A stretch of 64,000 bases of DNA. Origin: Limisphaerales bacterium. Its GTDB lineage: Bacteria; Verrucomicrobiota; Verrucomicrobiia; Limisphaerales; UBA9464. Where the stretch lies: contig CBDIPJ010000001.1 in NCBI GenBank assembly GCA_965283655.1, forward strand, positions 114,987-178,986, given 5' to 3'. The position numbers were made by a program, and so were the translations under genes. The stretch's first letter is position 1; each line of letters opens with the position of its first letter. Positions 3,713 through 39,618 of the stretch are shown one piece after another. The notes under the pieces are model-generated. The model made no database searches, had not been told where the DNA came from, and worked only from the letters and a program-made list of their open reading frames with translations.

Positions 3713-3734
3713 GGCCCCCTCGCGAACTCGGACC

Positions 3735-3840
3735 GGGGCGGCGACGTCCACGTCGCCCTCTCCCAGGCTCCTCCCCATGGCGATGAGGACATCACCTCCC
3801 CGTTCCAGGGCCGGGGTGGCGACGTCCACGTCGCCCTCTC
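3735..3840. repeat. REP-A array (+,-,+)
   Basis: GGCGACGTCCACGTCGCC at 3740-3757 and 3818-3835; inverted variant GGCGATGAGGACATCACC at 3779-3796. 39-nt spacing. Confidence 0.85.
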
Positions 3841-3909
3841 TCAAAGCCCCTCCCACCCCCGAAACCCAAGGCTGGATCCCTCCCACCCCAACGCGCCATC
3901 CTCCTGCCC

Positions 3910-4974: not shown

Positions 4975-5818
4975 GAGGCGGTGGCTCCACCACCTGCGCC
5001 TGCTCCTGCGTCAATGGGGGAGGCGCATTCAGACTCCGATAGATCCACGCCTCCAACGGCCGCAGCGGCCGGAGCAACGGATAGATCGGCGAGTACAACA
5101 ACCGCAGCCGGACCAGTGACAACAGCATGTTGAGGGAGGTCCGGAAGTTGAAGGCCACCTTTGAACCGCTCTGATCCGTCCATACCGTCGGCAATTCACG
5201 GATGCTGAACCCCGCGCGCCGCAGCGAATACAGCAGGTTCACGTCGAAGGCCAGGTCCGCCAACCGCAACTGCCGCTGCACCCCTTCCACCGCCGCGCGC
5301 CGCATCACCTTCGCCCCGCATTGCGTGTCCTGGATTCCCATCCAGAAAAATCCCTCCACGAACGCGTGGAACAACCGGCTCGCCCGCCGCCGATCCGTCG
5401 TCTGCGCCACATTGATCTGCGATCCCTCCACCCACCGGGAGGCAATCACACAGTCCGCCACCCCGTTCCGACACGCTTCCACCAATTCCAGGAATGCCTC
5501 CGGCGGCGTCGCCCCGTCCGCATCCACATACCCGATAAGATCGGCGAGGGGCGCCAGCTTCAGTCCTTCGATCAAGGCCCCACCCTTCCCGATCGGCGCG
5601 GGAAAGTTCAGGTGCGAGATGCACAGGTACCGCTGCTCCGCCGCCCGGACCACGCCGATCGTGTTGTCCCGACACCCATTCAGGACCACCACCAACTGGA
5701 ACTTCCCCGGATAATGCCGGATGAAATGCTCCGCGTACGCGTGCAGCACAGGCGCGATCCGACCTTCCTCATTGTAGGCAGGAATCAACAACAACAGGCT
5801 GGGAGCAGTGATGGCCAC
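4949..5818 (-). CDS. family 2 glycosyltransferase (polyprenol-phosphate sugar transferase-like)
   Basis: LLLLIPAYNEEGRI, VVLNGCRDNT and VDADGATPP (DxD) motifs. GTG start at 5818 chosen because the longer ORF (to 6166) begins inside REP-A repeats. Confidence 0.75.
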   Translation of the reverse strand: MAITAPSLLLLIPAYNEEGRIAPVLHAYAEHFIRHYPGKFQLVVVLNGCRDNTIGVVRAAEQRYLCISHLNFPAPIGKGGALIEGLKLAPLADLIGYVDADGATPPEAFLELVEACRNGVADCVIASRWVEGSQINVAQTTDRRRASRLFHAFVEGFFWMGIQDTQCGAKVMRRAAVEGVQRQLRLADLAFDVNLLYSLRRAGFSIRELPTVWTDQSGSKVAFNFRTSLNMLLSLVRLRLLYSPIYPLLRPLRPLEAWIYRSLNAPPPLTQEQAQVVEPPPLNRPSELL

Positions 5819-5894
5819 GCGTCCGGTGGAGCTTGGTGACAAACCCGGCCCGCGAAAAGCGCGATTCCAGCCCACCGGAAAGTTGGAACAGGAT

Positions 5895-5954
5895 GGCGAC
5901 CTCCTCGTCGCCGCAACACAGCCTTTGCCGGGCGATGAGGACATCGCCGCCCCG
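5895..5954. repeat. REP-A pair (+,-)
   Basis: GGCGACCTCCTCGTCGCC (5895-5912) and GGCGATGAGGACATCGCCGCCCCG (5931-5954). Confidence 0.8.
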
Positions 5955-6068
5955 TCACAATCCTCAAGCAGGCCCGCGTCGAGAGGCACCCCCCATCGAT
6001 CCCAAAATCCGCCCGTGACAGATCCCGGACAACCGGGTCCAATCTGCGTGCAACCCCGCTCCGACCTG

Positions 6069-6632
6069 ATGGAACTGCCGCCGGACAGCGCGCCTGTTCC
6101 GCCGCCTCCCCCGGCGGTGGACTCCCTGCCTTCCGAATTCGCTGCCCTGTACGAAACGCACAGCAAGCAGGTGTTCTATCTGGCTTTGCGTCTACTCGGG
6201 GACCCAACGCTGGCGGAGGACGCCGCCCACGACGTCTTCCTCAAGGCCTGGCGAAACCTGGGAAACTTCCGCGGCGATGCCGACATCCGCACCTGGCTCT
6301 ACCGGATCACCCTCAATCATTGCTCCAACCTCCGGTCCAGCTGGCACGCACGGAACGTCCATACCCAATCCGATGACACCGTCATCGAGAACGCCGCCGG
6401 CGCCTCCGAAAGCCCCTTTCGCGATGTCGAGATGTCCGAACTCGGCCAGCGCATCCAGAAGGCCCTCGACGAACTTCCCGAGGAGTACCGCGTCCTCCTC
6501 CTCCTGATCGCCGATCAGGAACTCAGCTACGACGCTGTCGCCCAGATCACCCACCAAACCGCCGATGCCGTCCGCGGCAAGCTTCACCGCGCCCGCAAGG
6601 CCTTCGGCACCGCATTCCGGAAGACCGGCTGA
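6069..6632 (+). CDS. ECF-type RNA polymerase sigma-70 factor
   Basis: Region 2 (DAAHDVFLKAWRNLGNFRGDADIRTWLYRITLNHC) and region 4 (LPEEYRVLLLLIADQELSYDAVAQI). ATG at 6069 avoids the repeat-derived upstream extension. Confidence 0.85.
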   Translation: MELPPDSAPVPPPPPAVDSLPSEFAALYETHSKQVFYLALRLLGDPTLAEDAAHDVFLKAWRNLGNFRGDADIRTWLYRITLNHCSNLRSSWHARNVHTQSDDTVIENAAGASESPFRDVEMSELGQRIQKALDELPEEYRVLLLLIADQELSYDAVAQITHQTADAVRGKLHRARKAFGTAFRKTG

Positions 6633-6636
6633 CACC

Positions 6637-6861
6637 ATGAACACACGCCTCCAGCAACAACAGTCCGCCCAGGCCAGCCACTCCCAGCAGTCGGAAACTC
6701 GCCAGGTGGGATCGTTCGAGAACGCCGAGGACGCCCTCCGCGCCGATCGCAACCAGACCACCGTCCCCAACAGCCTCGGCGATCGCATCGCGGAATCCCT
6801 CGCCAGCGAACCCCAGCCCGCCGCACCCAAGAGTTGGTGGCAACGGCTCTTCGGCAGCTGA
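6637..6861 (+). CDS. small hypothetical protein downstream of the ECF sigma factor
   Basis: 74-aa ORF starting 5 nt after the sigma stop. Gln/Ser-rich with no TM segment. Position suggests co-transcription; function unknown. Confidence 0.35.
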   Translation: MNTRLQQQQSAQASHSQQSETRQVGSFENAEDALRADRNQTTVPNSLGDRIAESLASEPQPAAPKSWWQRLFGS

Positions 6862-6970
6862 CATCAAGCATCCAGCCCGGGCACCCCGCGCACACGAGGG
6901 GAATCATCGCGGAGTGCCCGGTGGATCACAGGCCCGGCCAAGAGGGAAAACCGGGCCCGAAAGCATTACC

Positions 6971-7148
6971 CTAGAAACGGCAGTTCATTGAACCGCAGAT
7001 GCCGCCGATTCCGCAGATGGAGGGGCAGAAATGCCAGCACCCAAGGCTCGTGCAGACGTCACCTTGCGGGTGAAGGGCGCGCCCGATCCAAGCTGCTGAC
7101 TCTCTGCGTCATCTGCGATCATCTGCGGTTCCAACTGCTGCTTTCAGG
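6971..7148 (+). repeat. ~170-nt structured element, copy 1 (candidate ncRNA or MITE)
   Basis: About 97% identical to copy 2. Closing inverted repeats AACCGCAGATG (6991-7001) / CATCTGCGGTT (7120-7130), and CGCAGATG / CATCTGCG nested inside. GNRA hairpin GGCA-GAAA-TGCC (7024-7035). Confidence 0.7.
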
Positions 7149-7154
7149 ATTACC

Positions 7155-7940
7155 TCACCCAGGCCTAGGACGCGGCGGCAACACGGGGCGCGCCACAGGT
7201 GCGGGTGGAGTCGTGGAATGGGTTCCACTGGATGCCACCCCCGCAGGGGACGCGTTTCCTCCCCCACCCCGAGGCGGCGGAGCCGGCGCCGATTCATGCG
7301 CGCTGCTCCATTTCCAATCCCGCGGGCGTCGGCAAAGTCCCGCATTCACTGCCCGGAACTCCACATTCCGGATCCGCCGCATCACCTCCGCCTCATCCTC
7401 GAGCGCCCGCAGATACGGCACCCGCTCCCACAATTCCACCGCACCGCGGTCGAGCGCGAGGTTCACCTGACTTGTCGTGTACGAGCGCCATTCCCGGACC
7501 ACCGCGCCTGCATCGACCCCTTCCGCTGTCGTGAAGATCACCTGCAGGTGGTTGGGCAGCACCGACCACGCCCGCAGCGTATACCGTCTTCCGTGACCCG
7601 CCTGCAGCGCTGATTGCACCAGCCGGGCCACCTGCTCATCCCGCAACCAACAGTCCCCGTGACCCGCGTTCAGTTCAGCTTCGATCCGTTGGGCAATCCG
7701 ACGACGCAGGGCCGCTTCATCCCCGCCGTCGGTCCGGTTGGCTTCTTCCTCCTCCGACCGCAACCGCGTCACCAACTCGGCCGGCATCGCATCCGTCAAC
7801 CGGAACACCGCCCAGTAGGTGGAGACGGGACTGACAGGTGTCGCCGGGTTGCTTCCGGATGCGGGCGCGGGCGGCAGCACGGGCGGGCGTCCAGGCGGAG
7901 GTCGATTGGCGGATCCTTTGGGAGAAGGCGTTGTCTGCAT
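7155..7940 (-). CDS. divergent Y1 (IS200/RAYT-like, COG1943-type) transposase homolog
   Basis: Core pattern YWAVFRLTD..., GRRYTLRAWSVLPNHLQVIF, ELWERVPYLRAL, VNAGLCRRPRDWKWSSA matches REP-associated tyrosine transposases. The HUH position reads H-L-Q. Single gene with no IS ends. Confidence 0.6.
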   Translation of the reverse strand: MQTTPSPKGSANRPPPGRPPVLPPAPASGSNPATPVSPVSTYWAVFRLTDAMPAELVTRLRSEEEEANRTDGGDEAALRRRIAQRIEAELNAGHGDCWLRDEQVARLVQSALQAGHGRRYTLRAWSVLPNHLQVIFTTAEGVDAGAVVREWRSYTTSQVNLALDRGAVELWERVPYLRALEDEAEVMRRIRNVEFRAVNAGLCRRPRDWKWSSAHESAPAPPPRGGGGNASPAGVASSGTHSTTPPAPVARPVLPPRPRPG

Positions 7941-8008
7941 GCGTTGATGTCGCCTGCTACAACTTCCACCTCCGGAAGGTTACCGACGCGTTCAAAGATT
8001 TTTCCCTC

Positions 8009-8032
8009 CGGGGCGCGATGTCCTCATCGCCC
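8009..8032 (+). repeat. REP-A single copy
   Basis: CGGGGCGCGATGTCCTCATCGCC. Confidence 0.7.
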
Positions 8033-8116
8033 TGAAGAAAAGCCCACCAACGACAACGGAGACGTCCCCACCCTGTTCAACACAGGAGCCACTTCCAAAG
8101 GCACTGCCTTCCCGGT

Positions 8117-8611
8117 TCAAACCCGCTTGGGCGCGTTCAACGAAAGTCGGCCAGCCTCCTGGATATAGGTCAGCGCGATTGCCAGCGCGTCGGCCGCGTC
8201 CGGCTCGGGAAGATCCGTCAATCCCAGCATCCGCTGCACCATCCGAGCCACCGCGATCTTGCGGGCCCCACCATGGCCAGCAACCGCCAGCTTCACCTTG
8301 CTCGGCGCCACCTCGTAGACCGCCAGTCCCGAAACCGCCACCGCCGCCATCGCCGCGCCGCGGGCTTCTCCCATGATGATCGCGGTCCGCAGGTTGCGTG
8401 CATGAAACAAACCTTCCACCGCGCACACCTCCGCCCGATGCGCCGTCAGCACCTCCCGGAAAACTTCGTGGATCCGCAACAGGCAGCGCGACCGCGCCCA
8501 GGAGGCCGGACATCGGATCGTTCCATGCGCGATCCCTTGCGGCCGTCCATCCTCCACCTTCACCACCCCCCACCCGGTTCCCCGCAACGATGGATCAATC
8601 CCCAACACCAT
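8117..8611 (-). CDS. ruvC: crossover junction endodeoxyribonuclease RuvC
   Basis: MVLGIDPSLRGTGWGVV start, plus ...GHGGARKIAVARMVQRMLGL...PDAADALAIAL. Upstream in-frame Met codons (8728, 8806) are possible but atypical. Confidence 0.85.
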   Translation of the reverse strand: MVLGIDPSLRGTGWGVVKVEDGRPQGIAHGTIRCPASWARSRCLLRIHEVFREVLTAHRAEVCAVEGLFHARNLRTAIIMGEARGAAMAAVAVSGLAVYEVAPSKVKLAVAGHGGARKIAVARMVQRMLGLTDLPEPDAADALAIALTYIQEAGRLSLNAPKRV

Positions 8612-8783
8612 CCGCACCACCGGCACTTCCACCCCAGGCAACGCCCGCTGCGCCGATCCCGCCTTCGACCCGCCCCCGGACTGCATCCGGCGCTGCAATT
8701 CCGCAAATTCCTTGGCTGAGATACCCATCGCCCACCGGCATACATTCCGGTCCGACCTCGCGCGAGCCCTTTGAGGAATCCTG

Positions 8784-9788
8784 TCAACGGACCGCCGCCA
8801 CCCCACGCTTTACCAGGATCGATCCCCCGCTCGTCCGCAACCGGACCGTCTCACCCCCACCATTGACCGGACCCGACAACTCGGTGCGCTTCGGCTTCCC
8901 ACTCGTTTCCACGGGGAGTTCCGACCGGACCCCACCCCCGGTGGAAGAAGCATCCAGGGTGAAGGCCGCATCTGGCGGAGCGGTCAGGCTCACGCTGCCG
9001 CCCGAAGTCGAGAGGTCCACCGCCCCGGGAAGCGTTGCCCCGGGGACGATCGCCTGGATGCTGCCTCCCGACGTATTCCCAACGATACGGCCAGCAATGC
9101 CCTCCAGCGTGATGCTGCCTCCACTGGTCTCCACCACCGCCGGCCCCGCGAATTGCGCCACCCGGATGGAGCCACCCGAGGTATCCGCATCCAGGGTTCC
9201 ACCACCGCCCTTGACCTCGATCCTTCCGCCCGAGGTATCGATATCGATCTTCCCGGTACAGTCGACCACCACGATCGTGCCTCCGGAGGTTTCGCCCCGG
9301 ATGTCTGCGCGCACACCGGTGAACTTCAAACCCCCGCCACTCGTATCCGCCACCACCGGGGCCGCCAGGCCGGTGACGTGAATGTGCCCGCCGGCGGTAT
9401 CGAGGTTCACCGAACAATCCGCCGGCACGGAAATCCTGTAGAGCCCCTCGGTCTTGATCCGGTTCCAGCTCCAACCCGTGATCGCTCCAGGCTTGATGGC
9501 CTTCACTTCCAACTCGGAGCCCGCCTGCTTCATCACCAGCGGACGCTCGGCCAGGAACGCTTTCTCCTTGGCAACCGTCCCGGCAGTGACCTTGCGGTAA
9601 GCCGAGACCACAATCTGCGAAGTTGCATTGGTCACCACCTCGATCGCCCCGAAATCAACGTCCACCTTCAACGTCATTCCTGGCGTCGCCGTGAAGCTAT
9701 GGTCCACCCGCTCTTCGGTCGCAGCCATCAGGACCGGAACACAGCCCAGCAGCACCCCCAGAAACCTGACATTGCATCGCGTCATCAT
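8784..9788 (-). CDS. DUF4097-family secreted beta-helix protein (putative adhesin)
   Basis: Signal peptide (MMTRCNVRFLGVLLGCVPVLMAA) followed by repeated [DE]TSGG.I.V motifs, more than 8 times. Confidence 0.7.
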   Translation of the reverse strand: MMTRCNVRFLGVLLGCVPVLMAATEERVDHSFTATPGMTLKVDVDFGAIEVVTNATSQIVVSAYRKVTAGTVAKEKAFLAERPLVMKQAGSELEVKAIKPGAITGWSWNRIKTEGLYRISVPADCSVNLDTAGGHIHVTGLAAPVVADTSGGGLKFTGVRADIRGETSGGTIVVVDCTGKIDIDTSGGRIEVKGGGGTLDADTSGGSIRVAQFAGPAVVETSGGSITLEGIAGRIVGNTSGGSIQAIVPGATLPGAVDLSTSGGSVSLTAPPDAAFTLDASSTGGGVRSELPVETSGKPKRTELSGPVNGGGETVRLRTSGGSILVKRGVAAVR

Positions 9789-11028: not shown

Positions 11029-11130
11029 GCACTCACCCTGACGCACGCGCTTCCCCATGGCAAAAGGGAGTTCAATGCGGATTCCGTCGGATGCCTGCCG
11101 CCGTGCGTTCTGAGACTGCCCCACCGTGAC

Positions 11131-11231
11131 CGGGGTGACGACGTCCTCGTCGCCCTTCCCCAAATCTCCTCTCCATGGCGATGAAGACTCGTCGCCCCGC
11201 CTACGGACGGGGCGGCGACGTCCTCGTCGCC
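11131..11231. repeat. REP-A array (+,-,+)
   Basis: CGGGGTGACGACGTCCTCGTCGCC (11131-11154), GGCGATGAAGACTCGTCGCCCCG (11177-11199), CGGGGCGGCGACGTCCTCGTCGCC (11208-11231). Confidence 0.85.
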
Positions 11232-11536
11232 CTCCAAAGCCATTCTCAAACGAGGGCCACGTTAAAAGCCCCCTTCTGCACAGGGCCCCTTGATTGAACG
11301 GAGGCAGCCGTTGCACTGTCGTTACAGGTCAGTCGCACCGGCGCCTTTTCCAAGGACCCGTCGCTTCCCTCGGTTCCATCGTGTCAGGACGTGTACCCTC
11401 CACCCCTCCTGCCATGTGGATGCCCCTCAGTCCCCACGGATGGTTCACGGCCCAATCTTGACGTTGGTTCGGAATGCAGGCGGATGCTCCGCCGGTTCCA
11501 TCGTACCCATCCGCCCACAAACCTCACCGCTCGCCC

Positions 11537-13627
11537 ATGTCCGCTGAAAACCCTCCCACCCCGACACCCGCCCATCGGTCGCTCCTCGCCTTTCCCTTTG
11601 CCATCGCCACGCTCGCCCTGCTCGCGTGGCAGACCCTTCGGATCGTCCTCTGGATCCGATTCGCTCCGGACAACCTGCCCTGGCGCCAAGCACTGGAAGT
11701 CCTGGGGAACGGTGTCTTCGGCGACGTCGCCTTCGCGATCCTCGGCAGTGGACTGCTGATCGGTCTGTCCGCACTTCTCGCCACGATCCTCTCGCTGCCT
11801 GCCCTGCTGGTGCAGGCCTTTGGTCCCGCGGCGTGGCGTCCTACATGGCGCTGGCTGTTCCGCGTCGCCATCTCGGTCGGCTTCATGGCGGGAATCTTCC
11901 TGCTGATCAGCGAATGGTACTTCTTCGCCGAGTTCGAAAGCCGCTTCAACACCGTGGCCATCGACTACCTCATCTATCCACACGAGGTGTTCACCAACCT
12001 GCGGGAGAGCTATCCGCTCCCGGCCATCGCGATCCTTTGCGCCGTTGGCGGCCTTGCCCTTTCCCTGCTCACCTTCCGCCGGTGGCCACCCGCCTGGGAA
12101 TCGGCGTCCCGCACCCGTCGCACGTTCGCCACCGCTGCCTGGATCGCGCTCGGCCTCGCTACAGCCACCGCCACCCAGTTCAGCCGCCCCCCCGCCAATC
12201 GCCCCAGAATCCTCAACGAACTGGCCTCCAATGGATGGGCCTCCGCCCTCCGCGCCGCATGGTCCCGCAACCTCTCGTATCCGGACTTCTATCCCGTGCT
12301 CGACCGGACCGAGGCCTTCCATCGGGCCCGGACGCTGCTGGCAGAGCCGGGTGCTGCCTTCACCGCACCGCCTGCTCCTCCTTTTCCAAACTCCGCATCC
12401 AACGCCGTCCCGGATCCTGCCGCCGTCGAACGTTGGCTTGATCAGGCGCGCGATTCGCTACGCCGTCGCATCGCCGGGGATCCTTCACGCCCCCGGCGAA
12501 ATGTCTGCATCATCACCGAGGAAAGCCTTGGATCCGAATTCTGGGGAAGCCTCGGGCGCACCGTCGACGGCCATCCCGACACCCTCACCCCGCGGATGGA
12601 TGCCCTCGCCGCCTCCGAGGCCCTCCTGTTCACGCACCTGCTGGCCGATGGCAACCGGACCATACGCGGCCTCGAAGCCGTCTATTCCAGTTTCCCGCCG
12701 CTTCCCGGGGACAGCATCCTGGCCCGCGACCACACCGAGAACGTCGAAACCATCGCGAAGGTCCTGAAGCGCGACGGCTACTCCACCCTCTTCCTGTATG
12801 CCGGCCACGGCACGTTCGACTACATCCGGAGCTATTCGCTGCGCAACGGCTGGGATCGTCTGGTGGAGGAATCGGACTTCGACAACCCCGCGTTCCGAAC
12901 CGCGTGGGGAGTCAGTGACGAAGACCTGCTGCAACGGGGAATCGAGGAGATGCGCGCACTCCACGCCGCCGGAAAGCCGTTCCTCACCAGCTTCATGACG
13001 GTCTCGAATCACCGTCCGTTCACGTACCCCAAAGGCCACATCACCGAGAACCCCGATGAACACCGTCGGAACAACGCGGTGAAGTACGCCGATTGGGTTC
13101 TCGGCGACTTCTTCGATCGCGCCCGGAAGGAACCGTTCTGGCAGGACACAATCTTCGTCGTCATCGCCGACCATGGCGCACGCGTCTACGGCAGCCAGAC
13201 CATCCCCCTCAAGAGTTACCAGATCCCCTGCCTCATCGTTGCTCCTGGCCTCGTGCAGTCTCCGGGCCGCATCGACGTCACTGGATCGCAACTGGACGTC
13301 ACCCCAACCGTGCTCGGCCTGATCGGTCGCCCGTACGAATCCCTGTTCTTCGGACATGACCTCCTCGCACCGGATGCGGGCTCACGGACCCGTTGCCTCA
13401 TGCACCACAACCGGTCCGTCGCCGTCTATCACGACCGACATCAGGTGGTCCTCGGACTCGGCAAGACCGTCGAGTATTGGTCGGGTGAACCCGGCTCCGG
13501 CACGATGTCCCGCAGTTCCATGCCTGATCCGTCTGTCGAGAGCCTGAGGGACGACGGCATCGCGCTGTTCCAGGTGGCCGACGAACTCTACACCGCCGGC
13601 CGCTTCAACCTTCCGCCCGTCCCGTAA
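11537..13627 (+). CDS. LTA synthase / sulfatase-family membrane protein (alkaline-phosphatase superfamily)
   Basis: Five or more N-terminal TM helices, then a sulfatase-like domain (ITEESLGSEFWG, MTVSNHRPFTYP, VIADHGARVYG). Confidence 0.8.
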   Translation: MSAENPPTPTPAHRSLLAFPFAIATLALLAWQTLRIVLWIRFAPDNLPWRQALEVLGNGVFGDVAFAILGSGLLIGLSALLATILSLPALLVQAFGPAAWRPTWRWLFRVAISVGFMAGIFLLISEWYFFAEFESRFNTVAIDYLIYPHEVFTNLRESYPLPAIAILCAVGGLALSLLTFRRWPPAWESASRTRRTFATAAWIALGLATATATQFSRPPANRPRILNELASNGWASALRAAWSRNLSYPDFYPVLDRTEAFHRARTLLAEPGAAFTAPPAPPFPNSASNAVPDPAAVERWLDQARDSLRRRIAGDPSRPRRNVCIITEESLGSEFWGSLGRTVDGHPDTLTPRMDALAASEALLFTHLLADGNRTIRGLEAVYSSFPPLPGDSILARDHTENVETIAKVLKRDGYSTLFLYAGHGTFDYIRSYSLRNGWDRLVEESDFDNPAFRTAWGVSDEDLLQRGIEEMRALHAAGKPFLTSFMTVSNHRPFTYPKGHITENPDEHRRNNAVKYADWVLGDFFDRARKEPFWQDTIFVVIADHGARVYGSQTIPLKSYQIPCLIVAPGLVQSPGRIDVTGSQLDVTPTVLGLIGRPYESLFFGHDLLAPDAGSRTRCLMHHNRSVAVYHDRHQVVLGLGKTVEYWSGEPGSGTMSRSSMPDPSVESLRDDGIALFQVADELYTAGRFNLPPVP

Positions 13628-13673
13628 CCACGTCGGAAGCGGGACGGCTCTGTGGAGACACCCACTTTGCCAA

Positions 13674-13697
13674 GGCGACGAGGACGTCGCCACCCCG
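13674..13697 (-). repeat. REP-A single copy
   Basis: GGCGACGAGGACGTCGCCACCCCG. Confidence 0.75.
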
Positions 13698-13785
13698 TGC
13701 CGTGCTTCCCCGTGTCGGGATTCACCCTCCTGCCCGGCCACGGCATTTTTGATTCCGAAATCCCCGATCAGGGCCATCCTCCGAC

Positions 13786-19944: not shown

Positions 19945-20126
19945 GGGGGAGGGAGTTCGAAGTTTTCAGTTTCAAGTTTCAAGCCGGTGGAACGCCGCGT
20001 GGGGGCACGCGGCCTACACCGTTCTGGCATCCGGAAACTTGGAACTCCTCCTGAAGGCCGGGTGCCCTCACCCGGCGAAATTCAGGCAGGCTTCAAACTT
20101 GAAACTTCAAACTTGAAACTCCCATC
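19945..20126. repeat. composite mosaic element filling the purH/pilin stop-to-stop gap
   Basis: Ends GGGAGTTCGAAGTTTTCAGTTTCAAG... and ...CTTCAAACTTGAAACTTCAAACTTGAAACTCCC are inverted heptad modules. REP-B at 19993-20017 (-, GTAGG head) and 20052-20077 (+). Confidence 0.8.
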
Positions 20127-20948
20127 TCACCTCGGCCGCGTGGCGGGCATCCGGTAGCCGGCGTGCCAGTTGTAGAACCACAGGCGCTCCAACGGCACCA
20201 ACTCGGCGTGACCATCCATCGCCGCCATGTTCACGCCACCGGGCAACTTCTCGCCCGGCGACAACCTTTTCGGGGCTGCCTTGCCCACGGGACCGGAACC
20301 ATGACGCCCGATCATGAACCGCCCCAACCCACCGGCGACCCCATCGCCCTCGTAGAGGTTCCGGGCTGGAATGTCGTTCGCCTCGGGCCATGAATCCACC
20401 CACATGCCGTCCCCGAACATGAAGCTCAGGGATGGCGTCTCGACGCTCGTCTCCTTGGTGAACGCCTTGGCCGGTTCAACGGGCGGCACCGAGTAAAACC
20501 ATGAATTGAAGCAGTACCCTCCCTGGAACCCACGCACGCCATTCGTCCGCCACAACCAGGTTTCGTCTGCCGTGCCATAATCCGCGTTCGCAGGATTCCG
20601 CGAAATGCGGCGGCGCGGCTCGGGAGCCATCGGACAGTACCGGATGAAATGAGCCTTCCCCTGATAGGCCAGCAGGCGGTTCATCCAGAGGCTTTGGGAC
20701 CCATCGTACGGCAGCATGACCCCGCGGTTGTCATCGAGGTACATGGTATGGGCGAGGCCCATCTGCTTCAGGTTCGACAGGCACTTGATCTGGTTCGCCT
20801 TCACCTTCGCCTTGCCAAGCGCCGGCAACAACATCCCCGCGAGGATCGCAATGATCGCGATCACGACCAGAAGCTCAATCAGGGTGAAAGCACTCCGTAC
20901 CTCCCCACGCGGGCTCCGATCCCAGTCACCACATCCAAGCCTGTTCAT
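20127..20948 (-). CDS. prepilin-type N-terminal cleavage/methylation domain protein (H-X9-DG-like class)
   Basis: [27 protein letters not shown]-terminus; C-terminal [15 protein letters not shown] motif. Confidence 0.8.
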
Positions 20949-21102
20949 CTCCAACACCAAAGCCAACCCAGCGTCGCCGGGAAAGCTCAAATCTGGGGTC
21001 TGGACCAAGTGACTGATCTCCATCCCCTCCTCCTCCGGCTGGGGAAGGCCCCAACCTCCTTTCAAACTCCGACGTCCAGCCTCAGGATACGAGGCGTTTC
21101 CC

Positions 21103-23031
21103 TCACCTTCCCCCGCCCGCACCGGCCCCCACCGGCACAGCCTCCGGCCGCAACAGCTCCTTCAAGTTGTATTGGAAGTACCGGCAGTGCGCCGCCGGGG
21201 TCTCCCCGTCCGAATTCGCCACCCAGAAATCCAATGTGTCCGGTGCGAACAGCACGCTGTGGATGTTGGATTTCATGCAGACCGGACGCGTCATCAGATC
21301 CCGAGCCGTGGCCGCATCAAACGTCCCGTGCTGCGCCTTCACGCGCCGGACCAGTTCCTCGTACCGATCGCCCGCGCTCAGGAGCACCGCGTTCGGCACG
21401 GCGTGTGGCAAACGCTCATGGGATGCTCCCGGTTCCACCACCTCGAAGGTCGTCGGGGTCGCCGCAATTCCCACCGCCTTCCCCGTCTTCCCGTCGGCGA
21501 TCACGTAATAGTATTCACAAGTCCGAGGCCCCTTCCGGAGGATCGCGACGGCCTCGTCCAGCGTCGTCGCCGACTCCATCACCTCGCGCAGCAGTTGGGC
21601 CATCGGCTTTCCGTCCCACTGCCCCTCGCCGCGGCCGCCCATCTCGCCAATGCTGATGTGCTGGTCGTTCATCGCCGTCACCGTCCCCACGAACCCGGCG
21701 TAGCTCACGTTCGCCCACGCGTGCCCCACATCCGGCCGATACACGATCACGACCGCATTCGGCTCGAGTCCGATACCCTTCATGTAATCGAGTACCCGAC
21801 CGTGGAAGATCCGTCCTCCCGCCGTCGCGCCCGGCAGCAGTGCGTAACCCGAGCAATGGAACAGTTCCGGGAAGAAATTCGCCAACCGGACCTCCTCACG
21901 ATCCAGGTTGGCAGCCATGGCGATGGCATCCATCTCCCGGATGTACCGGGCGTCCGTGAATCGACCAATCCGCGTCTGGCATTGCTCGATCTCACCGAGA
22001 AACCACCGCCCCTTCTCAAAACTGCTGCCCACGCCCACCCCGTAGAGCACCCGCTCGACCAGATCACGCACCTCACGCCGGAGCAGTGTCCCATGTTGCT
22101 CTCCCATTTCCTCCGGCGTGCCTTCCAGGAACAGGACCCGCGTTCCATCGTGCAACTCCAGACGCCCGCGACCATGACGGGCCACCACCTGACGCCCCTC
22201 ACCCTTGCGCGACGGAGTTGCCTTGGTGGTCACAACCCGCAGTGCCGTCGGCAGGAATTTCTGCAGATGCGAGATCGCCACCGGTTCCACAACCACACCC
22301 TCGGGAACCTGCATCCGCCAGCGTTCCTCCGGCCAGGCCGTCTCCAGGCGCAGACCGCGCACCTGCACCACCACGTCCGTCTTCAACCCGTCCGAGTATC
22401 CGATCCGGATCGGCAACCCATCGGAAGGACGCAGGGCCAGCGTCAGCACCATCGGCCCGGTCTTGAGCATCGCCTGGGCCTCACGCGCCAAGGTTGCACG
22501 GATCACCCGACAGACCGAACCATCCACCGTCTCCCCAGGCATCTCCTCGGCACGGAACATCAGCGGGATCACCGCCAACTGTTCCGGCGGGACGGGCAAG
22601 GTGAGGGGCCCCAGCCGTGATGTGTCCTTCACGTCCGGCGCCGTCGAAAACCGGGCGCGCCCGGGTGCCCCGTGCACCCCGAATCGCTTTCCGGGTTGGA
22701 GGATCCAGAACTCATCCCCCAGTCGCCCGATCTCGAGCGCTTCCTTCTTCAGTGAGCCCGACACCTTCGCGCGATCGGGGAACTGGACCGCGCCCACCCA
22801 CTTCATTCCAGCCAGTTCGTCGGGCAAGCCCTGCGCCCGTACCACCTCCACGGTTCCGGACAAGGTTTGCTGGTTCGTCGGGTTGAACAGGGCCACCAAT
22901 TGGTTCACCGAATCCGTCAACTGGATCTGCGGGGGCTTGGCCACCCCGGCCGCCCCAACCGCCGCAATCCAGATCCAGGAAAGCAACAGCCACACCCCAC
23001 CGCTCCTCCATCGCGACGCCCCGGTGAACAT
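21103..23031 (-). CDS. secreted protein with LolA-like N-terminal region and C45-family (acyl-CoA:6-APA acyltransferase-like) peptidase domain
   Basis: TM/signal ([17 protein letters not shown]). [27 protein letters not shown] resembles the C45 autoprocessing site. ATG at 23031; the upstream MKLETLEG extension is repeat-derived. Confidence 0.65.
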
Positions 23032-23245: not shown

Positions 23246-23604
23246 CCACACAACCTGTGAGGGGCAACCCGACACGCTTTATACCAACGTGGGGTATTTT
23301 CCGGCAGCCTGACACCTTGCAGTCTGAAACCTTTTCCTAGATTTAGTTCCCGTCACCTGGGGGTGTGCAAGACTCCAAGGTGCGAAGAGGGGGATAGGGC
23401 TTCGAGAAACGGTCGACCACCGTGACCCGCAAGCATCACTCCAGAGGGCTTCAGGATCACTGCGTTGCAACAGTGCCCCGGTCGGCCCAAGGAGCAGATC
23501 CGGTCTAGGCCGGGCGTCCGGGCCTGCATCCGCAGGCTCAAGGGGACCCTTTGTCGCACCTCATAGGAAGTCTGCCTTTCAGGCGACCCAACACACGAGG
23601 TCCC

Positions 23605-26600
23605 ATGAAAACGCTGAAATCCATCCGGGCTGGACTGGCCCCGGGGCTCGCAGGAGCCCTAACCCTGCTGGCGCTGGCCGGCACCAGCACCAATGCTGCG
23701 CAGGTCTCCTACACCAGCACCCTCTCCATCAGGCCGACTGGTTGGACCAACACGGTGTCCCTACCCCAGTTTGATCCGGTCAACGGAACCCTCCTCGGGG
23801 TCACGCTCCGGGTCGACAGCACCTTCCGGAGCGTCTCCCGTGTCGAAAACACCACCCCTGTTCCGGCCCCGCAAACCGTTTCCGGTGCGCTCGGCTCCCT
23901 GGTGACCTTCAACCCGTCGGCCTTGCCCCTGATCTCGGTCGCTCCCGTGGTCAGGTTCACCAACAACCTGGCAGCCTACGACAGCCTCCCGGACTACGGC
24001 GGCAGCTCGGGTGTCTCGAACGCCCGACGCGTCGCCACGGCATCGGCCACGCAACCCCAGCTGCCTCCCTTCATCGATTTCGAAGGCACCGGCAATGTGA
24101 ACCTGACCCTGGCCGCCACGGCGACCGGCTTCTGCATCGGGCCCGCCAACTTCCTCCTGGCCGTCACCCCCGAGATGGGCGCGTCCGTCACGGTCATCTA
24201 TGATTACGAGGAACCGACGACCCCCACCGGCATCGGCGACTTCGTCTGGAATGACTTCAATGGAAACGGCGTTGCTGAACCCGGCGAACCCGGCCTCCCC
24301 GGCGTCACCGTCTCCCTGCTCGACGAGTTTGGCGTTCCCGTGGCCGGCATCTTCCCCACGGTCACCGATGCCAACGGCGCCTACAACTTCTCCGGAATGC
24401 CCGCCGGAAACTACTACGTCGTCATCGAGCCACCCGCCGGCTTCGTCCCCACCTATGACGTCGACGGCGTCGATGCCTCCAACTCCGCCCTGGTCAACAT
24501 CCTCGCCGGACAGTTCCGCGACGATGTCGACTTCGGCCTCGCCCAGCTGACCAGCACAGTCGGCGACCGCGTCTGGAACGACGCCAACGCCAACGGAATC
24601 CAGGACACCGACGAAACCGGCATCGCCGGCGTCACCGTCGACCTGAAGGACGCCACCGACGCGGTCATCGCCTCCACCTCCACGGATGCCAACGGCACCT
24701 ACGGCTTCTCCGGAATCGCTGCAGGCACCTACACCATCGCTGTCAGCGGCCTCCCCTCGGGCTACGTCGCCACCTTCGATGCCGACGGCCTTGGAACCCC
24801 GGCCACCACCTCCCTCTCCCTGAACGCCGGTGAGGTGATCGACACCATCGACTTCGGCTTCCAATCCCAGAACTCCGGTCTCGGTGACCGCGTCTGGCAG
24901 GACCGCAACGGAAACGGCGTCCAGGAATCGGGCGAACCCGGCCTCGCCGGCATCACCGTCGAACTCCGTTCGGCTTCCGACCTTTCCTTGATCGGTTCCG
25001 CCACCACCGACGCCACCGGCACCTACGGGTTCTCCGGCCTGCCTGCCGGCGATTACCTCGTCGTCGTCTCCGCTCCCGCCGGTTACCAACCGACACACGA
25101 TTTCGACGGCACCGGCTCCCCGAGCCAGACGCAGGTCCAACTCGCCAGCGATGAGGTCCGCAACGACGTCGACTTCGGTTACGCCGGCGGCACCCTGGGC
25201 GACCGTGTCTGGTCCGACGCCAATGCCGACGGCATCCAGGATTCCTCCGAATCCGGCATCCCCGGCGCAACGGTCACCCTTTCCACCGGTGCCACCACGA
25301 CCACCGATGCCAACGGTTACTACAGCTTCGGCGACCTTCCCGCTGGAACCTACACGATCAACGTGAGCGTGCCCGCCGGTTGGGTGGCCACCTTCGACAC
25401 CGACGGCATCGCTTCCGCCGGTTCCGCCATCGTGACCCTCGCCGCCGGGCAGACCCTCGACACCGTGGACTTCGGTTACCAGGAGCGCACCGCCAGCGTC
25501 GGCGACCGCGTCTGGCGCGATGACAACGGCGATGGAATCCAGGATGGCGGCGAACCCGGCCTCGAAGCCGTCGTCGTCGAACTCCGCAATGCCGCCGGTG
25601 ACATCCTGATCACCACCGCGACCACCGACGCCAACGGCTTCTACCAATTCTCCGACCTCGCCGCCGGCACCTACACCGTCTGCGCCATCCAGCCCAACCG
25701 CCACGTCCCGACCTTCGATGCCGACGGTTCCGCCGTCGCCAACTGCGCGGTCATCACCCTCGCCACCGGCGAGGCCCGCAATGACGCCGACTTCGGTTAC
25801 CAACCGCTCGGAACCATCGGTAACCTCGTCTGGCTCGACCTCGACGAAAGCGGGACCTTCGAAGCCGGCACCGAACCCGGCCTCGGTGGCGTCACCGTCA
25901 CCGTCTCCGGCACCGGCGGCACGTTCACGACCGTCACCGACGAGAACGGCGCCTACCTCTTCGACAGCCTGCCGCCCGGCACCTACACCGTCAGCGTCAC
26001 GCCTCCTGAAGGCGTCACCGCCGTGTACGACGTCGATGGCATCGCCACCCTCAATCTCGCCACCGTCACCCTCGCCGCCGGCGGCGAAGACCTCACCGTC
26101 GACTTCGGTTACAACGTCGGCGGCAATCTCCTCACCGCCGACATCTCCGGCCGCGTGTGGGATGACCTCGACGCCAACGGCATTCCGAACGGACCGGAAA
26201 CCGGCCTCCCCGGATTGCCCGTCGCGCTCGTCGACATGAACGGCATCGTGGTCGCCAGCCAGTTCACCGATGGCGCCGGATTCTACGCCTTCAACGCGAT
26301 TGCCGCCGGCACCTACCGCATCGCTGTCACCCCCGCCGCTTACTGGGGCCCGACCTTCGACATCGACGGCACCGGCACGCCCAACCAGGCCACCACCTCC
26401 GTCAATCCCGGCCAGGTCCTCAACGGCGTCGACTTCGGTTACCTCTACGCCCCTCCCGCCGGCAGCATCGGCGACCGCGTCTGGAACGACGCCAACGGCA
26501 ACGGAATCCAGGACCCCACGGAAACCGGTCTCGCCGACGTCTTCGTCGAGATCCGCGACGAACAGGGCACGTTCCTGACTTCCGCCACCACCGACGCCTC

Positions 26601-29199
26601 CGGGTACTACACCCTCTCCGACGTCGATGCCGGCGACTACGTCCTCTCGATCGTGCCCCCCGCCTACTACGAGGCGACCGGCGACCTCGACGGCGTCCTC
26701 ACCCCGAACATCGCCCTCGTCACCCTCGCCATCGGCCAGGAACGCACCGACGTCGACTTCGGACTGATCTACAACCCGCCGCCGGCCCTCGTCGGTGACC
26801 GCGTCTGGATCGATGAGAACTCCAACGGCGTCCAGGACCCCGGTGAATCCGGCCTCGCCGGCTTGACCGTCAACCTCCTCGACAACGCGGGCAGCATCGT
26901 TGCCACCGCCACCACCGATGGCGTCGGCGCCTATGCCTTCAGCGGCCTGCAGGCCGGAAGCTACACCGTCGCCGTCGCCTCGCCCCTCTACTACATCCCG
27001 ACGTTCGACTTCGACGGCATCGCCACCACGAACGCCGCCACCCTCACCCTCTCCATCGGTGAGACCAACACGACTGTCGACTTCGGCTTCGTCTACGCCC
27101 CGCCCCTCGGCCACATCGGTGACCGCGTCTGGATCGATGCGAATGCCGACGGCATCCAGGATCTCGCCGAAGCCGGCATGACGAACATCACCGTCACCCT
27201 CCGCGACGGCACCGGCCAGATCAGCGCCACCACCACGACCGACAGCACCGGCTACTACCACTTCAGCGGTCTCGCCGCCGGCAACTACTCCGTCGCCGTC
27301 ACCGTGGCCACCAACGCCCTCCCGACCTTCGACCTCGACGGCATCGCCACGACGAACGTCGCCGCCGTCACCCTCGCCATCGGTGAAGACAAGGACGACG
27401 TCGACTTCGGATTCCAGATCATCCTGCCGCCCGCCCTCGCCAGCATCGGTGACCGCGTCTGGATCGACAACGGCAATGGCCTCTTCGAACCCGGCGAGAA
27501 CGGCCTCACCAACGCGATCGTTGTGCTCCGCAACCTCCAGGGCACGCCCATCGCCACCAACATCGTCGGCGCCAACGGGGCCTACCTGTTCGAAGAACTC
27601 GAACCGGGCACCTACACCGTCACCGTCACGCCGCCCGCAAATTACTTCGCGACCTACGACCTCGACGGCCTCACCACGCCGGACAATACCACCGTCACTG
27701 TCGAGTACGGCGATGACCGTCGCGATGTCGACTTCGCCTACGCCTTCGTCGCTCCCGATCCCATGATCGGCCGCATCGGCGATCGCGTCTGGCTCGACGC
27801 CAACGGAAACGGCATCGCCGAATCGATCGAGACCGGCATCGCCGGGGTCACCGTCCGACTCCTCTCCCCCGCGGGAACGCAGCTCGACGTTGCCACCACC
27901 GACAGCACCGGATTCTACGAATTCGTCAACCTGGCCGGCGGCACCTACCAGGTCGTCGTGACCCCACCCGCCGGATTCTCGCCGACCTCCGACGCTGACG
28001 GCGTCGCCACGGCCAACTCCGCCGTCGTCATCCTCCCGGGTGGAGTCGAGATGCTCGACATCGACTTCGGCTACCTCCCGCCCGCCTTCGCCTGCATCGG
28101 TGACCGGGTGTGGATCGATGCCGACAGCAACGGAGTCCAGAACTCCTCCGAGGTCGGCCTCGCCAACGTCCGCGTCGTCCTCCTGAACTCGACGGGCACG
28201 CCGATCCGCACCAACACGACGTCCTCCACCGGCGCGTATCTCTTCAACAACGTTCCCGCCGGCACCTACACGGTGGTCGTCACGGCACCCGTCACGTTCG
28301 GGCCGACCTGGGACGTCGACGGCATCTCCACGCCGAACCGCAGCACGGTCACCGTCGCCGCCGGCGAAAACCGCCTGAACGTCGACTTCGGCTACGTCGC
28401 CTGCGCCGGCACCGGCCGCATCGGTGACCTCGTCTGGATCGACAGTGACGGAGATGGCACCCGCGACAGCAATGGTTGCCGCGGCACCGAGTCGGGCCTG
28501 CCCTGCGCCACCGTCCGGCTCTTCGATGCCAACGGATTCCTGATCGCAACCCGGCAAACCGACAACAATGGCCGTTACCAGTTCACCGGCCTCTTCGCCG
28601 GCCTCTACTCCGTGACGGTCACCCCGCCCTCCGGCTACACGCCGAGCTATGATCTCGACGGCCTCCTCACGCCCAACACCGCGACGCTCAGCCTCGCCAA
28701 TGGCCAGACCCGCAGCGACGTCGACTTCGGCTACATCCGCTACTGCCCGCGCATCACCACGGGCACCGGCTGCACGCCTGGCTTCTGGCGCAACCAGAAC
28801 GGCCAGTCACTCCTCCGTCCGTACGACTTCGCCGTCCTCACCTCGCTGAAGCTCGTCAATGACAACGGATCCGACCGCGACTTCACCTCGACCCTGAGCT
28901 CGAACAAGTCCGCCTTCGCCAGCTGGCTCCAGTCCAGCTCGGCCGTGAACATGTCCCGCCAGCTCTCGATCCATCTGGCGTGCTTCCAGCTCAACGTCCT
29001 CCACGGCTTCTACCAGCCGGGAACGTCCATCCCGACTCCGGGCATCGGCAGCGGTTCCATGACCGCCTCGAACCTGATCGCCGCGGCCAACGCTGCACTC
29101 ATCGCCGACGGCAACACACCGTCCGGTGACCCCAATCGCGCTTCTCAGGAAGTCCTGAAGAACGCCCTCGACGCCGCCAATCAGGCTGCCCGTCGATGA
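23605..29199 (+). CDS. giant secreted adhesin-like protein: N-terminal anchor-type domain + 14 SdrD-B/Cna-B-like repeats + Cys-containing C-terminal domain
   Basis: Signal peptide MKTLKSIRAGLAPGLAGALTLLALAGTSTNA. 14 units of about 105-115 aa, each starting G[DN][RLF]VW.D.[ND].[ND]G and containing TDANG.Y.F..L.AG.Y. Confidence 0.85.
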   Translation: MKTLKSIRAGLAPGLAGALTLLALAGTSTNAAQVSYTSTLSIRPTGWTNTVSLPQFDPVNGTLLGVTLRVDSTFRSVSRVENTTPVPAPQTVSGALGSLVTFNPSALPLISVAPVVRFTNNLAAYDSLPDYGGSSGVSNARRVATASATQPQLPPFIDFEGTGNVNLTLAATATGFCIGPANFLLAVTPEMGASVTVIYDYEEPTTPTGIGDFVWNDFNGNGVAEPGEPGLPGVTVSLLDEFGVPVAGIFPTVTDANGAYNFSGMPAGNYYVVIEPPAGFVPTYDVDGVDASNSALVNILAGQFRDDVDFGLAQLTSTVGDRVWNDANANGIQDTDETGIAGVTVDLKDATDAVIASTSTDANGTYGFSGIAAGTYTIAVSGLPSGYVATFDADGLGTPATTSLSLNAGEVIDTIDFGFQSQNSGLGDRVWQDRNGNGVQESGEPGLAGITVELRSASDLSLIGSATTDATGTYGFSGLPAGDYLVVVSAPAGYQPTHDFDGTGSPSQTQVQLASDEVRNDVDFGYAGGTLGDRVWSDANADGIQDSSESGIPGATVTLSTGATTTTDANGYYSFGDLPAGTYTINVSVPAGWVATFDTDGIASAGSAIVTLAAGQTLDTVDFGYQERTASVGDRVWRDDNGDGIQDGGEPGLEAVVVELRNAAGDILITTATTDANGFYQFSDLAAGTYTVCAIQPNRHVPTFDADGSAVANCAVITLATGEARNDADFGYQPLGTIGNLVWLDLDESGTFEAGTEPGLGGVTVTVSGTGGTFTTVTDENGAYLFDSLPPGTYTVSVTPPEGVTAVYDVDGIATLNLATVTLAAGGEDLTVDFGYNVGGNLLTADISGRVWDDLDANGIPNGPETGLPGLPVALVDMNGIVVASQFTDGAGFYAFNAIAAGTYRIAVTPAAYWGPTFDIDGTGTPNQATTSVNPGQVLNGVDFGYLYAPPAGSIGDRVWNDANGNGIQDPTETGLADVFVEIRDEQGTFLTSATTDASGYYTLSDVDAGDYVLSIVPPAYYEATGDLDGVLTPNIALVTLAIGQERTDVDFGLIYNPPPALVGDRVWIDENSNGVQDPGESGLAGLTVNLLDNAGSIVATATTDGVGAYAFSGLQAGSYTVAVASPLYYIPTFDFDGIATTNAATLTLSIGETNTTVDFGFVYAPPLGHIGDRVWIDANADGIQDLAEAGMTNITVTLRDGTGQISATTTTDSTGYYHFSGLAAGNYSVAVTVATNALPTFDLDGIATTNVAAVTLAIGEDKDDVDFGFQIILPPALASIGDRVWIDNGNGLFEPGENGLTNAIVVLRNLQGTPIATNIVGANGAYLFEELEPGTYTVTVTPPANYFATYDLDGLTTPDNTTVTVEYGDDRRDVDFAYAFVAPDPMIGRIGDRVWLDANGNGIAESIETGIAGVTVRLLSPAGTQLDVATTDSTGFYEFVNLAGGTYQVVVTPPAGFSPTSDADGVATANSAVVILPGGVEMLDIDFGYLPPAFACIGDRVWIDADSNGVQNSSEVGLANVRVVLLNSTGTPIRTNTTSSTGAYLFNNVPAGTYTVVVTAPVTFGPTWDVDGISTPNRSTVTVAAGENRLNVDFGYVACAGTGRIGDLVWIDSDGDGTRDSNGCRGTESGLPCATVRLFDANGFLIATRQTDNNGRYQFTGLFAGLYSVTVTPPSGYTPSYDLDGLLTPNTATLSLANGQTRSDVDFGYIRYCPRITTGTGCTPGFWRNQNGQSLLRPYDFAVLTSLKLVNDNGSDRDFTSTLSSNKSAFASWLQSSSAVNMSRQLSIHLACFQLNVLHGFYQPGTSIPTPGIGSGSMTASNLIAAANAALIADGNTPSGDPNRASQEVLKNALDAANQAARR

Positions 29200-29502: not shown

Positions 29503-29532
29503 GCGCCCCACTACCGTCACACTCCTCCACAC

Positions 29533-33885: not shown

Positions 33886-33927
33886 CCCAATGCCACGACG
33901 CAAGCACCCAGATTTCCCCGCCGTAAC

Positions 33928-34112: not shown

Positions 34113-34206
34113 AACTCCCGCCCGTCTCCCCCCACGATTCCCGATTGCATCCCCCACAGGCCCAAGGCCATGTTCCAAAGGTCTGCACGCTGGCAACACC
34201 CCCCTC

Positions 34207-35165: not shown

Positions 35166-35173
35166 GTATCCCC

Positions 35174-39600: not shown

Positions 39601-39618
39601 ACGCACTACGCACCCCTC

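Follow-up and report, generated by a model that had tools for sequence, protein, structure and literature searches.

A probably domesticated, catalytically inactive RAYT descendant encoded beside ruvC in a verrucomicrobial contig

We analysed a gene for a 261-aa protein in a 64,000-nt stretch of DNA (the window), positions 114,987 to 178,986 of contig CBDIPJ010000001.1 from a Limisphaerales bacterium. Most probably, the gene product descends from a class-2 Y1 HUH transposase of the REP-associated tyrosine transposase (RAYT, TnpA_REP) type, where REP denotes repetitive extragenic palindromic sequences, and has become domesticated and catalytically inactive. It was judged to be domesticated rather than decaying because catalysis was lost yet purifying selection was strong. 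Since the cleavage and joining chemistry of RAYTs was lost, the protein was not regarded as the spreader of the REP families found here.

7155 to 7940, minus strand: gene for the RAYT-derived protein, 261 aa (open reading frame (ORF) list, NCBIfam, PDB entry 4er8, AlphaFold, Foldseek and the ratio of non-synonymous to synonymous substitution rates, dN/dS)
7542 to 7550, minus strand: codons of H131-L132-Q133, the degenerate HUH motif, aligned to H-M-H of E. coli
7350 to 7367, minus strand: codons of N192-V-E-F-R196-A197, the remnant of the class-2 Y---NP signature on the alpha-D helix (alignments, predicted helix 183-199)

Roles in catalysis have been described for the Tyr, the HUH motif and N119, the last being the third metal ligand of TnpA_REP, and the class-2 TnpA_Y1 signature is Y---NP (PMC6006769, Table 1 for the signature). 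In the 4er8 alignment, PNHLQVIF of the window protein paired with PEHMHCIW of E. coli, and the outgroups read H-V-H. This confirmed H131-L132-Q133 at the HUH position, where a preliminary description of this DNA had read H-L-Q. The same description had considered the Tyr-containing helix (PYLRAL) to be kept. This was incorrect: Y176 of this motif paired with RFWEHAI of E. coli in a predicted beta strand (176-179), and PYLRAL was a W...aromatic structural motif outside the alpha-D helix. The catalytic Tyr of E. coli TnpA_REP was Y115 in VDYIYINP by our count on the alignment, which fits the N119 numbering of PMC6006769. Y115 paired with N192, in IRNVEFRAVNAG, N119 paired with R196, and the next Pro paired with A197. 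The class-2 Y---NP signature was lost, the window protein reading N-V-E-F-R-A. Its only Tyr residues were at 42, 120, 154 and 176, with none after 176.

The same positions were compared between the family (31 clade proteins and the one from the window) and the 150 best outgroup representatives, all aligned to one profile. No member of the family had Tyr at the catalytic position (0/32; N 18, G 6, S 4, A 3, D 1), whereas 146/150 outgroup representatives did. The Asn of Y---NP was likewise absent from the family (0/32; R 30, L 2) and present in 145/150 of the outgroup. The second HUH His was replaced in most members (Q 22, H 8, C 1, V 1), and the first was kept in 30, with Arg in two (P0030 and P0033). 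Both HUH His residues were present in 148/150 outgroup representatives, and approximately 97% of the 150 nearest ones retained HUH, Tyr and Asn. The sister sequence P0064 was also dead, its residues at the three positions being H-L-R, A and A. These results showed that N192 and R196 stand where the clade ancestor lost the Tyr nucleophile and the Asn metal ligand, respectively, and that the second HUH His later drifted among Q, H, C and V. Judged from these residues, the covalent 5'-phosphotyrosine cleavage and joining of RAYTs would be beyond the means of the protein.

Descent from this superfamily was supported by profile, sequence and model. The folded core covered approximately residues 40-220, and residues 100-212 matched NCBIfam NF047646 (REP_Tyr_transpos) over profile positions 27-146 of 146 (E=1.1e-14, 54.5 bits). 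The curated cut-off of this profile is 80 bits, so the match marked a significant homolog below equivalog level. A phmmer search of PDB gave E. coli TnpA_REP (4er8) with E=8.5e-5. The AlphaFold model, built with 23 family sequences, had a mean predicted local distance difference test (pLDDT) score of 77. Its core blocks scored 83-96, a core loop at about residues 91-100 scored 64, and the tails were below 50 and disordered. The best PDB match of the model in Foldseek was 4er8_A (E=5e-8, template modelling (TM) score 0.63 normalised to the target), followed by TnpA of ISDra2, IS608 and IS200 (E about 1e-4). The model showed the ferredoxin-like HUH fold of the HUH/Y1 superfamily. The IS200/RAYT-type core seen in the preliminary description was thus borne out. 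The hidden Markov model (HMM) check that it proposed was only partly positive: the NCBIfam match was significant though below the cut-off, and Pfam PF01797 (Y1_Tnp) gave zero matches to the protein even at E<=1. Among other clade members, P0009 and P0033 had no PF01797 match and P0024 reached 16 bits (cut-off 23), and the outgroups P0031-P0037 were above the gathering score. The protein is a Y1/HUH superfamily member by descent and fold. The label of RAYT or transposase did not fit it, because it lacked the catalytic features that define these enzymes and scored below the curated HMM cut-offs.

The conserved blocks of the family were GHGDCWL, RYxLRAW..PNH, W..TT.Q.N, (L/F)W(E/D) and PVNAxLCRRPxDWxWSSA. 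The structural and DNA-facing motifs of TnpA_REP were mostly kept (GHGDCWL, RAW..PNH, W-E and PV.A.LC..P.DW.WSSA). Both tails were proline-rich and disordered, the N-terminal one with a conserved NRPPPGRP motif and the C-terminal one conserved and Pro/Arg-rich, with PRPRPG. A gene caller based on GC content at third codon positions (GC3) overlooked the ORF owing to the elevated GC2 of its proline-rich tails. The codon statistics of the core were normal, with a GC3 of 0.76 that was typical of the host. The ORF was confirmed and, as first described, stood without a partner gene: neither a tnpB partner nor a second copy was found within the window. PADLOC found nothing on the protein.

The family was small. 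A search of 5.8 billion proteins gave only 32 clusters, and HMMER, run exhaustively against 1.84 billion representatives, gave 3238 relatives at E<=0.001 and three at E<=1e-30. The 32 family sequences were monophyletic in a neighbour-joining tree, with P0064 as sister. The ORF was intact in all 32 cluster representatives at identities of 41-96%, and many columns were invariant. The Nei-Gojobori dN/dS of the core (residues 40-220) was 0.027 against the locus L001 and 0.046 against L002, at dS of about 0.37-0.39, and was 0.076 between L003 and L004. The preliminary description had offered an inactivated or domesticated copy as its fallback. Loss of the catalytic residues together with a core dN/dS of 0.03-0.05 supported the domesticated form. 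The identity of the protein core rose and fell with that of the neighbouring RuvC (RuvC/core 98/98, 88/82, 85/79, 74/59 and 66/45.5%). L001, 91% identical, was a Verrucomicrobiales metagenome-assembled genome (MAG), and L003-L005 were Verrucomicrobiota and 'Akkermansia'-labelled MAGs. The clade lineage is Verrucomicrobiales. L002 (JBIKWS010000302.1) was labelled Cyanophyceae; it was collinear with the window, its encoded proteins were 92-96% identical, and the contig was probably mis-binned. One copy per contig was found in 12 loci with conserved synteny, in agreement with the single-copy, vertical and non-mobile behaviour of Bertels 2017.

The gene was located in a neighbourhood of housekeeping genes.

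8117 to 8806, minus strand: ruvC, Holliday-junction resolvase (Pfam PF02075, E=6e-35), directly upstream of the gene
5808 to 6861, plus strand: sigma factor of the extracytoplasmic function (ECF) type (Pfam Sigma70_r2 and r4_2) with a small downstream ORF, convergent with the gene

The neighbours in the window were trpD-like, GT2, the ECF sigma gene with the small ORF, the gene itself, ruvC, DUF4097, an OYE reductase, tRNA-Tyr and a sulfatase. The sigma ORF, at 5808-6632, had an uncertain start, and the small ORF is possibly an anti-sigma gene. This arrangement was also present in L081 and L085 and was not present in L083 or L087. The gene was directly downstream of ruvC in 8/12 loci (window, L001, L002, L005, L081, L083, L085 and L087). 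The family members encoded beside ruvC were P0009 in L081, P0010 in L085, P0024 in L083, P0029 in L005 and P0033, 41% identical, in L087. Three unrelated ruvC neighbourhoods were involved, namely DUF4097-ruvC-X-sigma, hypothetical-ruvC-X-ftsH and thiG-ruvC-X-DLH. No ruvC was found within 10 kb in the 75 outgroup loci (0/75), which came from Verrucomicrobiota, Planctomycetota, Acidobacteriota and other phyla. Between ruvC and the gene lay 55-70 nt in L081, L083, L085 and L087. The spacers of L001, L002 and L005 were 159, 113 and 229 nt long, respectively, and that of the window, which held one REP plus other sequence, was 176 nt.

A promoter-like motif was located immediately upstream of the gene.

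7957 to 7983, minus strand: promoter-like GTAAC-N17-TGTAG, 3' end 16 nt before the ATG, ECF-like (-35 AAC, -10 CGT/TGT)

The motif GTAAC-N16/17-(C/T/G)(G/C)TA(G/C) was found upstream of the gene in 12/12 loci of the dead clade and upstream of none of the 75 outgroup genes (0/75). Its distance to the ATG was 15-16 nt in 11/12 loci and 8 nt in L091 (P0064). The stricter form GTAAC-N16/17-YGTAG occurred twice in the window, where 0.02 occurrences were expected by chance. ECF-sigma promoters are marked by 'AAC' at -35 and 'CGT(A)' at -10 (PMC5758882). The motif is therefore probably a specialised promoter of ECF type with a very short leader, as read from its sequence. The GTAG that closely precedes the ATG was considered as a REP head or self-binding site, and this reading was rejected. 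A promoter element was preferred because of the fixed distance to the ATG, the GTAAC partner at -35 and the recurrence upstream of an unrelated prepilin-like gene. A scan of 6600-8300 for sigma-70 promoters and terminators found nothing. A tie between the neighbouring ECF sigma factor and the motif is speculative.

The second motif in the window, GTAAC-N17-CGTAG at 48394-48420 on the minus strand, was 13 nt before the ATG-CAA at 48378 of a prepilin-like ORF, MQSNTSPGRHGAARSFFSAASRLIELVVVIAIL; the ORF lister had chosen a later start, 48315. The motif pair suggests a small regulon common to the prepilin-like ORF and the RAYT-derived gene. The head of the repeat family D7, CGTAGCAGTCG, had the same letters as the -10-like box and the bases that follow it in the promoter motif at 48394 and in those of L081 and L005. 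D7 units with this head were at 29327-29412, 33926-34076, 41214-41414 and 47232-47487 of the window, and such units might carry or mimic -10 elements.

The relation of the gene to the repeats was examined at its flanks.

8008 to 8034, strand not assigned: one degenerate REP hairpin of D17 type, GGCGATGAGGACATCGCG-CCCCG, in the spacer between ruvC and the gene

L001 and L002 had this D17 half-site at the orthologous position, and it was absent from the 55-70 nt spacers of farther relatives. A single D17 beside the gene is unremarkable, since D17 was present in roughly a quarter of the window intergenic regions (a rough estimate, not computed). The flanking 16-mers of the gene occurred at most 2 times in the window, where the top 16-mers had 8 occurrences; within the available sequence they were not among the most abundant, the mark used by Bertels 2017. 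Nearly all copies of the families D7, D13, D17 and D5 were in the window or L001; the exceptions were two D17 units in L002 and D13-like matches in L004 and L081, two in each. Apart from these, no D-family repeats were found within the 5-20 kb that surround the gene in L081, L085, L083, L087, L003, L004 and L005, and repeated 14-mers were essentially nil there. As placed by the alignments, the loss of Tyr and Asn predates the split of lineages that are 41-46% identical. Because this loss was ancestral to all these lineages, it was far older than the REP expansions. Separately, L089 had three to four tandem 145-nt units at 474-944, each with a GACCCGCCAACTTCGGCGGGTC hairpin, approximately 800 nt upstream of the P0017 ortholog.

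Active relatives showed the classical arrangement. REPs flanked 49/75 active outgroup loci, as scored by a flank 13-mer recurring at least 3 times in the locus. Many loci had the same word or its complement on both sides of the gene, and many of these words were GTAG- or GTGG-headed, e.g. GTAGCGCCGGCGT and GTAGGGCAGGC. The parent family thus consists of genuine REP-associated RAYTs, and the dead clade has left that lifestyle. D7 and D13 are presumably moved by an intact RAYT encoded at another place in the genome. For Verrucomicrobia, REPs with GTAG had already been reported from Opitutus terrae (PMC3733652). Together with the 49 flanked loci, this report showed that the preliminary description overstated the case in calling RAYT/REP biology essentially undescribed in this lineage.

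The window itself was dense in short repeats, as had been described, and D7, D13 and D5 clustered in intergenic mosaics resembling bacterial interspersed mosaic elements (BIMEs). D17 had approximately 19 units without a GTAG head, mostly in inverted doublets of the form CGGGGyGGCGACGTCCwCGTCGCC-N19-GGCGATGAGGACATCGCCrCCCCG (doublet fold z=-5.3). D13 had 15 hairpins with an 8-bp stem (head GTAG 4, GAAG 8, other 3), and its GTAG heads went mainly with the GCCGCGTG stem. D7 had 15 units of GTAGCAGnCGACGTCAGGAGGCTG, all with a GTAG head; a single unit did not fold (z=-0.6), whereas an inverted doublet with the variant GTAGCTGACGAGGTCACGAGGCAG did (z=-6.5). Two hairpin families had been described as GTAG-headed; this held for D7 and for only 4/15 of D13 (8/15 being GAAG), and D17 had no such head. 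D5 was an A-rich family of about 13-15 copies, AAACTTGAAACTGAAAACTT. The placement of D17 differed between the window (5876-5986 and 13615-13723, window only) and L001 (8113-8320, L001 only), so elements were gained or lost recently. These presence-absence differences were clear; the junctions were too rearranged for a target duplication, target site or insertion mechanism.

D17 inverted doublets of approximately 70 nt resembling REPINs (REP doublets forming hairpins) were located at 3730-3843, 5895-5948, 11127-11239, 44772-44836, 54657-54721 and 61824-61888 of the window, and L001 had D17 tandem expansions at 8113-8320 and 11217-11403. An A-rich family with an apparent periodicity of approximately 7 nt, AAACTTGAAACTGAAAACTTCGAACTC, was present in about 13-15 copies, usually at REP-cluster edges and directly beside gene starts or ends (20021-20134, 29450-29512, 32789-32844, 34056-34118, 34945-35174, 39538-39602, 41400-41462, 44905-44951 and 47551-47582). 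Its composition was odd for a 65% GC genome. The ORFs at 20127-21122 and 32840-33835, both on the minus strand and of 331 aa, had a D5/D6 repeat directly at the 3' end and may be paralogs. A match to the Rfam small RNA Acido-Lenti-1 (43718-43763, minus strand, 48.3 bits, gathering 37) was approximately 100 nt from the D17 REP at 43596-43613. The ORF at 23551-29199 on the plus strand (1882 aa) held approximately 15 tandem units of about 324 nt with a GDRVW.D.N.NG.QD-type motif and probably encodes a repetitive surface or adhesin-like protein.

The structured element at the 3' end of the gene was of another kind.

6970 to 7148, strand not assigned: miniature inverted-repeat transposable element (MITE), 179 bp, with imperfect terminal inverted repeats (CCTRGAAAcGGCAGTT...) and the duplication ATTAC at 6965-6969 and 7149-7153
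37129 to 37298: MITE copy 2, duplication TTCAT/TTCAT
62843 to 63011: MITE copy 3, older, flanks CTGAG/CTGAA

The terminal inverted repeats were CCTAGAAACGGCAGTT... and ...AACTGCTGCTTTCAGG, the duplication was 1 nt from the stop codon of the gene, and the fold score of the element was z=-3.2. The orthologous site was empty in the two closest relatives, L001 and L002 (GAGGTGA|TGCTTTC). Terminal inverted repeats, target duplication, several copies and an empty site identify the element as a MITE that was recently inserted just past the stop codon and is unrelated to the gene. As a REPIN or RAYT substrate it was rejected on the basis of its terminal inverted repeats, its 5-bp target duplication and the empty site in relatives. 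A structured element of approximately 170 nt abutting the 3' end had been described correctly, and it turned out to be this unrelated MITE, absent from L001 and L002. The accompanying statement that the gene had no insertion sequence (IS) ends was half right, since the element has terminal inverted repeats and a target-site duplication of its own. The family was approximately 170-180 bp long, with ends CCTRGAAnCGGnAGTTCATT... and 5-bp target duplications, and one copy was 63% diverged. No MITE transposase was found within the window, and Rfam at both thresholds gave no match to the 3' element and the spacers.

Based on these results, we considered how an inactive RAYT descendant could be of use to its host. 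The protein might bind single-stranded or hairpin DNA, the substrate class of its RAYT ancestors, without catalysis, and Arg196 might fill the former metal site. Its expression from a promoter of ECF-sigma type would suggest stress induction. It could take part in the processing of DNA structures in the same setting as RuvC, with extruded hairpins or cruciforms as possible targets of recognition. A nuclease-dead reader of DNA structure, coupled to RuvC and the ECF promoter, that guards hairpins or cruciforms (e.g. REP/REPIN) or marks them for RuvC is a tentative and rather unlikely elaboration. If true, it would be a second-stage domestication of an already domesticated transposase and a TnpA counterpart of the nuclease-dead regulators derived from TnpB.

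Several points weighed against domestication with loss of catalysis, or against its coupling to RuvC. The catalytic positions were placed with a sequence alignment and a secondary-structure prediction rather than a solved structure, and the AlphaFold model was built on 23 sequences only, with a mean pLDDT of 77. The first His, the Trp and many core residues were conserved, so a non-canonical activity is formally possible. The statements 'single copy' and 'no REPs' hold for 5-20 kb around the gene, because the relatives were MAG or metagenome contigs. The ruvC linkage was not obligatory, since the P0015-P0019 subclade (L003, L004 and L089) and P0064 (L091) were without it. Co-transcription with ruvC was unnecessary, because the gene bears its own promoter motif. 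The DNA-binding role was inferred by analogy with the substrate class of ancestral RAYTs.

An unlikely alternative was a trans-acting regulator or inhibitor, which would bind REP hairpins uncut and limit the REP/REPIN mobility caused by an active RAYT elsewhere. Transposase-derived inhibitors exist, e.g. Inh of Tn5, and the retained DNA-binding scaffold without catalysis would suit this role. REPs were recently mobile, as indicated by the D17 sites that differ between the window and L001, and GTAG-headed REPs like those flanking active relatives were present. However, the gene was conserved in relatives with REP-free neighbourhoods, REP sequences varied between lineages while the protein core was highly conserved, and no active paralog was located in the sequence examined.

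A nuclease with non-canonical residues, using a hydrolytic mechanism or another Tyr (Y176, Y154 or Y120), was improbable. The first His was kept in 30/32 members and a complete H-u-H in 8/32; Y120 was invariant and Y176 at least 90% conserved in the 23-sequence alignment A1. However, Y120 and Y176 were located in core beta strands, and active relatives had aromatics at the Y176 position. No member had an intact metal triad, one or two of its positions being altered, and the first His was Arg in P0030 and P0033.

The two weakest explanations were effectively excluded. An active RAYT mobilising D7, D13 and D17 in this genome, as the preliminary description had proposed, could draw on the homology to TnpA_REP, the D17-type REP in the 5' spacer and the REP-dense window, but the Tyr nucleophile and Asn ligand were absent in 32/32, the second His of the window protein was Gln, the loss was ancestral and older than the REPs, farther members lacked these REPs in the 5-20 kb around the gene, and the flanking 16-mers reached at most 2 in the window against 8. 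A decaying, functionless RAYT remnant, in effect a pseudogene, would agree with the lost catalytic residues, the missing Pfam match and a second HUH position that flipped between Q and H even among sequences approximately 93% identical, but not with a core dN/dS of 0.03-0.05, an ORF intact in 32/32 at 41-96% identity, many invariant columns and a conserved promoter motif and start codon position.

RAYTs are the textbook case of a domesticated bacterial transposase, and their benefit to the host is still debated. A selected clade without the chemistry separates DNA recognition by RAYTs from transposition, and it is a natural experiment on the host value of the RAYT scaffold. Concrete hypotheses that can be tested follow from the conserved ruvC linkage and from the specialised promoter motif. 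In the JGI annotation, at least P0002 and P0024 were named 'REP element-mobilizing transposase RayT'. This label is misleading for the dead clade and would distort RAYT/REPIN censuses in Verrucomicrobiota. RAYT groups were described as domesticated yet catalytically intact (PMC5581495), and a survey of TnpA_Y1 found the HuH and Y motifs common to all sequences (PMC6006769). In a literature search that was incomplete, and that gives absence of evidence only, we found no account of a RAYT clade that is conserved but catalytically dead.

The closest known system was RAYT/TnpA_REP class 2 (4er8; PMC6006769, PMC5581495). The protein resembled it in fold (Foldseek E=5e-8) and in the NH-u-, W-E and C-terminal PV.AG...DW.WSSA-type motifs, and the gene resembled it in one copy per contig, vertical inheritance and a chromosomal housekeeping context. 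The nearest active relatives (30-41% identity) were flanked on both sides by GTAG- or GTGG-headed REPs, whereas the gene was not flanked by abundant repeats. The clade also differed in having N/G/S/A/D---R(A/P) for Y---NP and usually Gln for the second HUH His, in scoring below the curated NCBIfam and Pfam thresholds, and in its ruvC linkage, ECF-like promoter motif and conserved proline-rich tails. TnpA of IS200/IS605 (IS608 and ISDra2) shared the HUH/Y1 fold family (Foldseek E about 1e-4). However, the gene had no tnpB partner, subterminal hairpin ends, multiple copies or Y---Q motif, and the protein differed by a long beta1-alphaA insertion. It did not behave as an insertion sequence of this group, with ruvC and the sigma gene plus its possible anti-sigma partner as neighbours and no second copy in the window. 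A further parallel is TldR, a nuclease-dead regulator exapted from TnpB. TldR differs in deriving from the RuvC-like TnpB and in using a guide RNA, where the present protein is a TnpA-like HUH protein without one. The two are alike as proteins of the IS200/IS605 world that lost catalysis and were retained by the host, presumably for their nucleic-acid-binding specificity.

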